A program made the translations under genes and the position numbers. A stretch of 64,000 nt of DNA from Candidatus Jorgensenbacteria bacterium GW2011_GWA1_48_11 (GTDB lineage Bacteria; Patescibacteriota; Minisyncoccia; UBA6257; GWB1-50-10): contig LCPF01000001.1 of assembly GCA_001003475.1 (NCBI GenBank), forward strand, positions 328,549 through 392,548, read 5' to 3'. Positions 3,287-4,660 of the stretch are shown here, piece after piece; positions within the stretch are counted from its first letter, which is position 1, and every line of letters begins with the position of its first letter. The notes below the pieces were generated by a model. It did no database searches. It worked only from the letters and a program-made list of their open reading frames with translations, and was not told where the DNA came from.

Positions 3287-3310
3287 AGTCGCCTTCTTAG
3301 GCGATTTTTT
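3287..3310 (+). terminator. Terminator hairpin after nrdJ
   Basis: A TCGCCT/AGGCGA stem with a TCTT loop is followed by a T-run. Confidence 0.45.
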
Positions 3311-3311
3311 G

Positions 3312-3384
3312 TCCGCCCACTAGGAATCGAACCTAGAACCTTCTCCTTAAAAGGGAGCTGCTCTGCCAATTGAGCTATGGGCGG
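3312..3384 (-). tRNA. tRNA-Lys (anticodon UUU)
   Basis: The reverse complement folds as a cloverleaf: acceptor CCGCCCA/TGGGCGG, D-arm GCTCAATTGGCAGAGC, anticodon loop CTTTTAA and T-loop TTCGATT. CCA is not encoded. Confidence 0.8.
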
Positions 3385-3523
3385 GTTTAACTTTTAGAGT
3401 TTAACTTATCATTTATTTTAATTCAAGGTTGATTTTTAGAACAGTGTTCAGTTGACCGTTTAAGAATTAGAAATTAAAATGATTCTGCAATTTGATATTC
3501 GAAAAAGCATAAGAAGGTTCAGC

Positions 3524-3784
3524 TCCGCGGTAGCTCAGCGGTAGAGCGGCTCCCTGTCGAGATAATGGCAGCCCCAGGCAGTAATGTTTGGAGGAAAAAC
3601 CGGGCTAATTCGGGGAACTCTTGTATAAAGACAATCCCGAGCTAAATTCGCCCCAGGGCGATAAACGTGTAGAGACTATATACCCGGGCCCCTTAGAAAA
3701 AGGGACATGAGATAGTCCAGCCCCCTTGGCGACAAGGGAAAAACTGTAAGGAGATGGTCGTAGGTTCGAATCCTACCCGCGGAG
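3524..3784 (+). tRNA. tRNA-Asn (inferred anticodon GUU) interrupted by a 189-nt group I intron in the anticodon loop
   Basis: The 5' exon (3524-3557) reads TCCGCGG-TA-GCTCAGCGGTAGAGC-G-GCTCC-CTGT. The 3' exon (3747-3784) reads TAA-GGAGA-TGGTC-GTAGG-TTCGAAT-CCTAC-CCGCGGA-G. The spliced anticodon loop is CUGUUAA. The exon boundary is inferred from a U at the 5' exon end and a G at the intron end. Confidence 0.65.
3558..3746 (+). ncRNA. Group I intron (subgroup IC3-like, tRNA-type) inside the tRNA anticodon loop
   Basis: Core blocks resemble the small bacterial pre-tRNA group I introns (Azoarcus tRNA-Ile-like): GCTAAATTCG, GTGTAGAGACTA and a 3'-terminal G. Length is 189 nt and no ORF is present. 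Confidence 0.6.
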
Positions 3785-3837
3785 CTGAGCCTTTTTGTAT
3801 GGACGTTGAAAGCGGAATAACCAAGTTGCCGGTCAAA

Positions 3838-3868
3838 AATGGCAGGTTCGAATCCTGCTCCCGGAGCC
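3838..3868 (+). other. tRNA-like 3' fragment (T-arm plus acceptor 3' strand with encoded CCA) with no matching 5' half
   Basis: GGCAGGTTCGAATCCTGCTCCCGGAGCCA lies immediately downstream of the tRNA-Asn. No D-arm or complementary 5' acceptor strand was found nearby. Confidence 0.3.
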
Positions 3869-3919
3869 AAGAAGGAAGAGCGGAGACAAAATCCCCGCTT
3901 ATCTTTATCTAACAGTCTC

Positions 3920-4660
3920 TTATTCCGAGGTCTGTAATATCACTTCTTTTGCTCTTTGAGTAAAATGAACAATGAGGTTTTTGGAAAACTTGGATTCCTT
4001 GAGAAAGGCCATGCCGTCGGAAATGGTTGCTCCGAAAAGCAAAAGCCTGTTTAAGGCCGTAGGCCTTACCCGCGCTCGACCCTTGCGGTAATCTTCTTTA
4101 AGATCGATAAAGGTATCGAAACTGTTTGCCGCCCTCCCCAACCTGGTTAAAACTTTCAATAACGCCGGGAATTTTTCGCTCTTGCGGTATTCTTCGGGCA
4201 GAAAAGGAATGAAAACCTTCCCCATTACTTGTCCCTCGAGCCTCGTGAGAGTCGTAAATTTCGAAGATTCTTCTTCTGTTTTGATCTTCTCCGTTATATT
4301 CAAAATCCTCGATATTGAATCAAGGAAGGATTTTCTCTGAACTTCCGACAAACCGTCAACCAAATCTTTCACATTGCCCAAGGCGTTATTAAGCCTCTCG
4401 TCCTGGGAAAAACTTGATACCTCGCCGTTTAAAAAATTCATTACCCCCGATGCGAACTGCTCTCTTTCTTTTTCTTCCGGAATGGCATCAAGCCGGTCAT
4501 CGATGATCCGCACCGCACCCAAAATTGCCCGCCACTTCCCGACCGTTTCCGGAGGGAGAGCCAATCCCGTGATTTGTTCCGTAACCTCCCGAAGCGTATC
4601 CGAAGAATTCTCGTAGTGTTCTTGGGATACATCGAGTCTTGATTCGCCCATTTCTCTCAT
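3920..4660 (-). CDS. Hypothetical protein (246 aa)
   Basis: The long ORF has balanced composition. No recognisable motif. Confidence 0.55.
   Translation of the reverse strand: MREMGESRLDVSQEHYENSSDTLREVTEQITGLALPPETVGKWRAILGAVRIIDDRLDAIPEEKEREQFASGVMNFLNGEVSSFSQDERLNNALGNVKDLVDGLSEVQRKSFLDSISRILNITEKIKTEEESSKFTTLTRLEGQVMGKVFIPFLPEEYRKSEKFPALLKVLTRLGRAANSFDTFIDLKEDYRKGRARVRPTALNRLLLFGATISDGMAFLKESKFSKNLIVHFTQRAKEVILQTSE

Follow-up and report, generated by a model that had tools for sequence, protein, structure and literature searches.

The DNA analysed here is a stretch of 64,000 nucleotides (nt) from Candidatus Jorgensenbacteria bacterium GW2011_GWA1_48_11 (contig LCPF01000001.1, positions 328,549 to 392,548 of the forward strand), hereafter called the window. 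Its positions 3524–3784 very probably make up a functional gene for tRNA-Asn(GUU), which a compact group I intron of the Asn.4Ug class, devoid of any open reading frame (ORF), splits between U35 and U36 of the anticodon loop. This reading is carried by what is directly observed, namely the exon and intron limits, membership of the Rfam family of group I introns, the covariation of helices P1–P6 and P9, and conservation in at least 100 species. An earlier note, made from the sequence alone, had proposed a tRNA-Asn with a 189-nt group I intron in its anticodon loop; the exact coordinates (table 1), the tRNA recovered from the joined exons and the Rfam score all bear this out.

Reading of positions 3300–4000 places the exon/intron cuts between CTGT and CGAG and between ACTG and TAAG. 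Once the exons are joined, ARAGORN returns a tRNA-Asn(GTT) of 72 nt with a 7-nt anticodon loop CTGTTAA, which is the canonical tRNA anticipated from the exon halves, and the insertion indeed falls at the proposed 35/36 site. The junction between G3746 and TAA is the only one that gives back the loop CUGUUAA; CCA is not encoded at the end of exon 2. When applied to the raw window, ARAGORN misses the split tRNA-Asn and calls only the adjacent minus-strand tRNA-Lys(UUU). The Rfam covariance model that had been suggested as a check (RF00028, Intron_gpI) scores 56.7 bits on the window for a gathering score of 50 (E approx. 1e-11), and this family is one of just two Rfam families above threshold in the 64 kb. 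Moreover, six groundwater-metagenome contigs (PRJNA268031), each assembled independently, show 100% identity over the 601 bases around the split gene, so that the latter is not an assembly artefact. As previously stated, the intron has no ORF beyond mechanical frames of 26 and 29 amino acids (aa) on the plus strand; an intron-encoded endonuclease was not found in the window copy, nothing exceeding 29 aa on that strand.

Table 1. Features of the split tRNA-Asn gene, of its intron and of the adjacent region (positions in the window; P, J and L denote paired, joining and loop elements of the hand-built intron model).
Feature	Position	Strand	Description
tRNA-Asn exon 1	3524-3557	+	34 nt; acceptor 5' strand, D arm, anticodon-stem 5' strand, C32 U33 G34 U35; ends CTGT
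Group I intron	3558-3746	+	189 nt; first bases CGAGAT, last ACTG; no ORF
tRNA-Asn exon 2	3747-3784	+	38 nt; begins TAAGGAG; U36 A37 A38, anticodon-stem 3' strand, variable loop, T arm, acceptor 3' strand, G73
P1	3554-3559 / 3566-3571	+	exon CUGU and intron CG with UGGCAG; 5' splice site after U3557 (U-1)
Internal guide sequence UGGCAG (P1 3' strand)	3566-3571	+	G3568 pairs with U-1; GCAG at 3568-3571
P2 hairpin CCAGGCA-GUAA-UGUUUGG	3574-3591	+	GNRA tetraloop L2 at 3581-3584
P3 CCGGG / CCCGG	3600-3604 / 3683-3687	+	3' strand makes pseudoknot with P7
P4 UCGGGG / UCCCGA	3610-3615 / 3635-3640	+	hand model
J4/5 AAC	3616-3618	+	adenines invariant or nearly so among homologues
P5 UCUU-GUAUA-AAGA	3619-3631	+	minimal, 4 bp
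J5/4 CAA	3632-3634	+	adenines invariant or nearly so among homologues
P6 GC / GU	3641-3642 / 3667-3668	+	hand model
P6a hairpin UCGCC-CCAG-GGCGA	3648-3661	+	hand model
P7 G(A)GACUA / UAGUCC	3672-3678 / 3713-3718	+	bulged A; presumed guanosine-binding helix; matched to Williams' P7 annotation
P8 hairpin CCCUU-AGAAA-AAGGG	3690-3704	+	5 bp
J8/7 CAUGAGA	directly 5' of P7 3' strand (3713-3718)	+	
P9 hairpin CCCUUG-GCGA-CAAGGG	3723-3738	+	GNRA tetraloop L9 at 3729-3732
Terminal guanosine (omega-G)	3746	+	3' splice site after G3746; sequence-based
tRNA-Lys(UUU)	3311-3384	-	divergent, 140 nt upstream of tRNA-Asn
Sigma-70-like promoter candidate TTGACC-17-TAAAAT	3452-3480	+	44 nt upstream of tRNA 5' end, between tRNA-Lys and tRNA-Asn
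Orphan tRNA-Asn 3' end	3842-3869 (possibly from ~3807)	+	T arm, acceptor 3' strand, G73 and an encoded CCA; starts 57 nt beyond the gene
Hairpin scoring as terminator	3879-3899	-	for 246-aa ORF at 3920-4660

The minimum free energy (MFE) structure given by RNAfold for the intron alone recovers P2, P3, P4, P5, P6a, P8 and P9 of the hand-built model (z = -2.9), in which the spacing between P7 and the 3' strand of P3 is only 4 nt. A MAFFT alignment of 40 precursors was scored against this model, pseudoknot included; the comparative figures in this and the next paragraph refer to these 40 homologues. Standard pairs occupy 89.2% of the cells versus 69.2% in shuffled alignments (0 of 500 shuffles reach 89.2%), pairing drops to 35–50% when the 3' partner is slid by 1–3 columns, both-side changes are seen in 51 of the 73 pairs, and the covariation score is 0.534 versus 0.165 for shuffled data. 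Because the sequences share ancestry, the shuffle control overstates significance, an effect that leaves the slide control and the independent pair types untouched.

Considered helix by helix, P1 has an invariant CUGU/GCAG, including the U.G wobble (UG in 40/40), and the first intron base covaries fully with the base preceding GCAG (CG 20, AU 8, GC 7, UA 2, UG 2, GU 1). All seven pairs of P2 covary (94% paired), as do five of six in both P4 (96% paired) and P9, while both-side changes affect three of the five pairs of P3 (85% paired) and the GC/GU of P6 is replaced by GG/CC in 17 sequences. P5, P6a and P8 are misaligned by MAFFT in their distal portions, and the lower pairing there (62–79%) is owing to alignment error more than to the model. 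In the exons, the acceptor, D and T stems are paired in 100% of the cells with many compensatory changes. These compensating helices, together with the same-site split in at least 100 species, imply selection on the spliced product.

Several points nevertheless weigh against the interpretation of this locus as an active split gene, and they concern the recognition of the intron, its splicing and the status of the locus. First, the Rfam score exceeds the threshold by just 6.7 bits, and the alignment is misplaced over its 5' third: it begins at 3438, approximately 116 nt too far upstream, and ends 7 nt short of the terminal G. The fit of model positions 1–46 to 3438–3528 was rejected as forced upstream of the tRNA, the true P1 and P2 lying at 3554–3591, and intron limits copied from the cmscan coordinates would be wrong by more than 100 nt. 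A match so narrow and partly misplaced could also arise by chance or from a chimeric assembly, without any intron being present; this explanation is refuted by the exact reconstruction of the exons, the covariation, the same-site homologues (at least 100) and the six identical assemblies, and is scarcely credible. Two further reservations apply to the comparative data. Indeed, P7 is identical in 40/40 sequences and, as the core made of P7 and J8/7 never varies, covariation neither supports nor contradicts it. Likewise, the conservation of core motifs, junction and T arm is partly circular, since the pattern used to collect homologues (see below) required them. Finally, splicing experiments on the window intron or on any Asn.4Ug intron were not found in the literature examined.

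The second group of objections relates to tertiary contacts and to the alignment of the 3' exon. Clamps between L2 and P8 and between L9 and P5 are features of the Azoarcus intron structure. Of 80 short homologues, 75 have a GNRA loop in L2 and at least 62 have one in L9. A GAAA loop in L2 is accompanied by a P8 receptor of the 11-nt type (CCUAAG...UAUGG-type) in 17 of 41 cases and other L2 loops in 0 of 34 (Fisher p approx. 8e-6), the cross-controls (L2 with P5, L9 with P8) being both flat, which supports a putative L2–P8 clamp in the tRNA-Asn intron family. For L9 and P5, the association of loop and receptor is not significant with the motif used (p = 0.21), and an earlier, stricter motif was also weak. 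In the window copy, L2 is GUAA and L9 is GCGA, and plain helices with CC:GG (P8) and CU:AG (P5) would serve as their receptors; this arrangement fits the published loop/receptor rules, and the corresponding contacts may form. The minimal P5 and P8 of this copy carry no 11-nt receptors, and the intron may thus depend on a protein or on high Mg2+. As for the P1/P10 pairing that the earlier note had put forward as a check, P1 could be built around its invariant CUGU/GCAG, whereas no conserved P10 joining the guide region to the 3' exon was obtained, with just two possible pairs in the window and a variable base at the relevant place.

The intron could accordingly be real but non-autonomous, its excision in vivo requiring a host protein cofactor or chaperone as a result of peripheral elements reduced at 189 nt. 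The short P5 (4 bp) and P8 (5 bp) without 11-nt receptor, whereas 17 relatives possess one in P8, are in line with such a dependence, as is the missing P10. On the other hand, L2 and L9 retain the GNRA form and face helices that contain tandem C-G or U-A pairs, and small size is the norm in a family where 38 of the 100 tRNA-Asn members listed are shorter than 205 nt. Furthermore, the similarly small Azoarcus intron self-splices efficiently. A requirement for a host factor hence appears rather unlikely to us.

For the functional split gene that we favour, catalysis, autonomous splicing and tertiary contacts of the window copy are predicted along the following lines. The precursor would be transcribed, possibly from the promoter-like site upstream of the gene (3452–3480). 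The GCAG of the guide would pair with C32 U33 G34 U35 to form P1, with U35 in the U.G wobble, for which the adenines of J4/5 and J5/4 are the expected receptor. The core would fold through P3–P8, the P4–P6 stack and P7 with its bulged A, the GNRA loops L2 and L9 serving as clamps. In the established course of group I splicing, a guanosine acts in the first step and the terminal G in the second. Here, free guanosine held in P7 would attack after U3557; G3746 would then take over the guanosine site, and the 3'-OH of exon 1 would attack after G3746, so as to ligate ...CUGU to UAA... and yield the 72-nt tRNA-Asn. Because no conserved P10 is buildable, the 3' exon would probably be aligned by the anticodon stem, as was reportedly found for Anabaena pre-tRNA by Zaug et al. 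in 1993.

The last group of objections bears on the status of the locus, which could be a decaying pseudogene whose intron no longer splices, another tRNA-Asn lying outside the window and the locus being in turnover. This scenario draws on the orphan tRNA-Asn 3' fragment located 57 nt downstream, and on the count of tRNA-Asn genes being one for the 64-kb window. However, all core elements and tRNA helices are intact save for a G.A at 27–43, a pair that is non-canonical in 22 of the 40 homologues, and the sequence does not differ between the six assemblies. In addition, no second tRNA-Asn gene was found by ARAGORN within the 64 kb, and tRNAs are usually single-copy in genomes of the candidate phyla radiation (CPR). 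Decay of the gene is therefore very unlikely. The orphan itself is identical at 25/25 positions to the end of exon 2 in a Saccharibacteria metagenome-assembled genome (MAG; locus L058) and shows four differences from the window's own gene. Its 5' half was not found in the window, none of approximately 100 other loci has a counterpart, and the fragment has no tmRNA or other Rfam match. A similarity of its upstream region to the P9 tail and 3' exon was discarded as gappy and not significant. The orphan is the end of a different allele and probably no part of the functional gene; it may have been left behind when the locus was replaced, or may mark a former integration site.

In order to place the intron among its relatives, species-representative genomes were scanned with a degenerate pattern combining two core motifs, the junction between G and TAA, and a T arm at short-variable-loop spacing, a design that biases the sample towards compact forms. 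At least 120 loci were retrieved, and the 5' exon could be placed in 109 of those listed. At least 100 loci are tRNA-Asn(GUU) genes split between CTGT and TAA at position 35/36, exactly as in the window; G precedes TAA in every listed homologue, as the pattern demanded. The earlier description of tRNA-Asn and of the 35/36 site as uncommon consequently has to be abandoned, with at least 100 species-level genomes split identically and Asn.4Ug already listed by Williams (2020). Two matches are of another kind: in an Acidobacteriota MAG (L052) and a Chloroflexi MAG (L114), the interrupted gene is that of tRNA-Lys(CUU), with an identical position of the split in the loop (CTCT and TAA, i.e. CUCU/UAA), and the intron of the former clusters with the Lys.4Ug and classical IC3 seeds of Williams, not with Asn introns.

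According to their taxon labels, the matches listed comprise approximately 66 CPR/Patescibacteria of many classes, 12 Omnitrophota, 7 Chloroflexota, 5 Planctomycetes, a number of MAGs with a Proteobacteria label and a few others. Intron lengths among the matches listed range from 180 to 561 nt (median 210.5), with 11 introns of 189 nt or less, 38 below 205 nt and 13 above 450 nt. Small size for the group I class had been pointed out before, and is correct in so far as 189 nt compares with 205 nt for the Azoarcus intron. Three sub-families of tRNA-Asn introns can be separated in the 80 short homologues by the co-varying strands of P3, P4 and P6, namely CGGGCUAAUUCGGGG (a), UUCGGGAUAACGGUG (b) and UGGGUGAAUUGCGGG (c), and the window intron belongs to sub-family a. 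The members of these sub-families are intermingled among CPR classes and other phyla, a distribution suggestive of lateral movement or of an ancient polymorphism. We also observed 13 listed matches in MAGs labelled Gammaproteobacteria/Pseudomonadales, one of them on a contig of 1.0 Mb (L007, L010, L016, L045, L050, L064, L072, L073, L091, L099, L101, L109 and L119); their exons and introns interleave with CPR sequences, and the labels may be unreliable.

Such introns have been catalogued before. Williams (2020; bioRxiv, doi 10.1101/2020.01.27.920355) maps 5292 intron-split tRNA genes and extends the four classical types to 21. The database used there for validation, taken to be GISSD, lists no bacterial tRNA types beyond the four classical ones, each of them as IC3. 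The seed alignment of that study includes Pam37.Asn.4Ug, Wba81.Asp.4Ug, Mba143.Tyr.4Ug and Mpe6.Lys.4Ug, all at the same loop position, and the Asn, Asp and Tyr seeds share a CUGU...GCAG P1. The tRNAscan-SE 2.0 paper mentions only fMet and Ile2 cases, and Lui et al. (2021) report group I introns in some of the tRNAs from closed CPR genomes, whose tRNA sets were complete only when intron-split tRNAs were included. The window intron has a tRNA-Asn(GUU) host, lies after the fourth base of the anticodon loop (CUGU/UAA), and displays U-1 and the terminal G that define Asn.4Ug; it is a genuine and typical member of a class catalogued in 2020, is not rare, and has a size usual for its family. Going by its title, a preprint by Nakagawa et al. 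from 2025 deals with the same kind of element in the same host phylum, at a 'novel insertion site' in tRNA genes of Patescibacteria.

Comparison with individual introns shows where the window copy stands. Pam37.Asn.4Ug has the same tRNA-Asn host, insertion point, U-1, terminal G and GCAG guide, but it is longer, has a P7.1-like hairpin between P7 and the 3' strand of P3 and an extra 5' hairpin, and its core resembles sub-family c rather than a. The nearest seed is Wba81.Asp.4Ug, hosted by tRNA-Asp(GUC), with a core identity of 0.61 (nearest in 83% of bootstraps). It shares with the window intron CUAAUUCGGGGAA, UAAUCCCGAGCUAAAU, AAAUGUGUAGAGACUAUAUACC, the CUGU/GGCAG P1, a similar size (196 nt) and a simple P8 and P9, and differs in its 3' exon, which begins with CAC instead of UAA. 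The cyanobacterial and plastid tRNA-Leu(UAA) intron (Leu.3Ug) is likewise an anticodon-loop group I intron with the same core motifs; it is inserted at 34/35, measures approximately 220–250 nt, has a compound P9 and reaches approximately 0.50 core identity.

The intron of the Azoarcus pre-tRNA-Ile(CAU) (Aol6.Ile2.5Ug, 205 nt) is, like the window copy, a compact ORF-less intron of a bacterial anticodon loop, restricted to P1–P9, without P2.1, P5abc or P7.1/7.2, and with GNRA loops in L2 and L9. Both contain GUGUAGAGACUA, and the Azoarcus P4 (UUCGG.G/C.CCGAG) is of the same design. The Azoarcus intron sits one base further 3' (after position 36, hence '5Ug'), and its core identity to the window intron is 0.485. 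The two also differ in J7/3 (GA-C in Azoarcus versus UAUA), in J8/7 (AAGGCAUAGUCC versus AUGAGAUAGUCC) and in P6 (GCC-AAG versus GC-UAAAU). Moreover, Azoarcus possesses an 11-nt receptor in P5 that the window copy lacks. Its P8 contains a second such receptor, also absent from the window copy. With regard to the two core blocks cited earlier as matching small bacterial pre-tRNA introns, GTGTAGAGACTA at 3667–3678 is identical to the Azoarcus-type seed, whereas GCTAAATTCG at 3641–3650 falls in P6 and had been attributed to an incorrect element; the stretch that corresponds in position to UCAAAUUCGGCG, the J3/4–P4 block of Azoarcus, is GCTAATTCGGGG at 3604–3615.

The proposed IC3 type, likened to Azoarcus, is thereby only partly supported. 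The architecture agrees, the hand model and the MFE fold having P2 and no P2.1, P5abc or P7.1/P7.2, and IC3 introns are described as lacking P5(a-d) (PMC11835236). The sequence does not, with an identity of approximately 0.51 to classical IC3, Asp.4Ug as nearest seed, and non-classical J7/3 and J8/7. By seed, the identity of the window intron is 0.61 to Asp.4Ug, 0.56 to Asn.4Ug and 0.485–0.53 to the classical IC3 seeds, which are mutually at 0.64; since the seeds were transcribed by hand from the Stockholm file, these values may include small copying errors. A classical IC3 seed (Leu.3Ug, fMet.2Ug, Arg.5Ug or Ile2.5Ug) is nearest in approximately 2% of bootstraps, and neighbour joining groups the window intron with Asp.4, Asn.4, Tyr.4, Phe.2, Lys.2 and the tmRNA intron. 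The difference in mean identity is not significant (confidence interval -0.02 to +0.07). The signatures also diverge, with GACUA-UAUA-CC and AUGAGAUAGUCC in the window versus GACUR-GA-C-GG and AAGGGAYAGUCC in the classical set. Given this non-classical affinity and the P7.1-like hairpins of some cluster relatives, the Pam37 Asn.4Ug seed included, we do not file the window intron as IC3. It would be IC3-like by architecture alone, its sequence apparently placing it outside the classical IC3 tRNA introns.

Approximately 10 long introns (510–560 nt) were seen to contain a conserved ORF of approximately 80–127 aa with the motif C..C..HH..CANCHRE.H, starting 15–140 nt into the intron (L020, L023, L031, L035, L081, L083, L095, L118, L123 and L125). 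The full profile of the Pfam HNH family is matched by these ORFs at 17–19 bits, just under the cutoff of 21.4, and they probably encode an HNH homing endonuclease. The window copy, whose longer relatives carry this probable HNH ORF, looks like an immobile, vertically kept derivative.

One of these long introns, with its HNH-like ORF and an Rfam score of 97.2 bits (L031:64–647, minus strand), is found in an archaeal-type tRNA-Asn (G1-C72 acceptor, TTCAAAT T-loop). Its neighbours on the same 8.9-kb contig (1774–7560) are an MCM protein with an archaeal winged helix, TBP and a KH protein of the Dim2/PNO1 type. Archaeal group I introns were found only in rRNA genes by Nawrocki et al. (2018; PMC6125680), and a single archaeal tRNA case is dismissed as mis-binning by Williams (2020). 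If the contig is not chimeric, it would place a group I intron within a tRNA gene of an archaeon. A viral collection scanned with the intron and tRNA-Asn pattern gave one contig only, so that carriage by phages is unsupported; this match (L127, IMGVR_UViG_3300028840_006907, 469,617 nt) may stem from a huge phage or be a cellular contig taken for viral by mistake.

A broader view of these elements is conceivable, even if we find it doubtful. The CUGU-targeting introns (the '.4Ug' types of Asn, Asp and Tyr) might form a distinct, unclassified lineage of minimal group I introns separate from classical IC3, with many members of 180–200 nt, that has spread among GUN-anticodon tRNA genes by means of its GCAG guide and an occasional HNH enzyme and has crossed into Archaea. 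If so, the window copy would rank among the smallest natural self-splicing RNAs and would be a useful minimal model. Taken on its own, this instance is ordinary and of modest interest. The family may merit attention from those working on ribozymes and mobile elements, as many members are smaller than the Azoarcus intron, the guide matches the CUGU of tRNAs with GUN anticodons, and one member is apparently archaeal.

The practical consequence lies in genome annotation. Since ARAGORN misses the split gene, such genomes appear to be without tRNA-Asn, and inferences about completeness, auxotrophy and translation in the CPR are distorted. Recognizing the Asn.4Ug class corrects this apparent absence.

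Around the split gene, the promoter candidate is a consensus match only, one being found where 0.5 is expected. The wider neighbourhood, consistent with a CPR/Patescibacteria genome, encodes FtsA, FtsZ, NrdJ, a DUF5652 protein and many small unknown ORFs.

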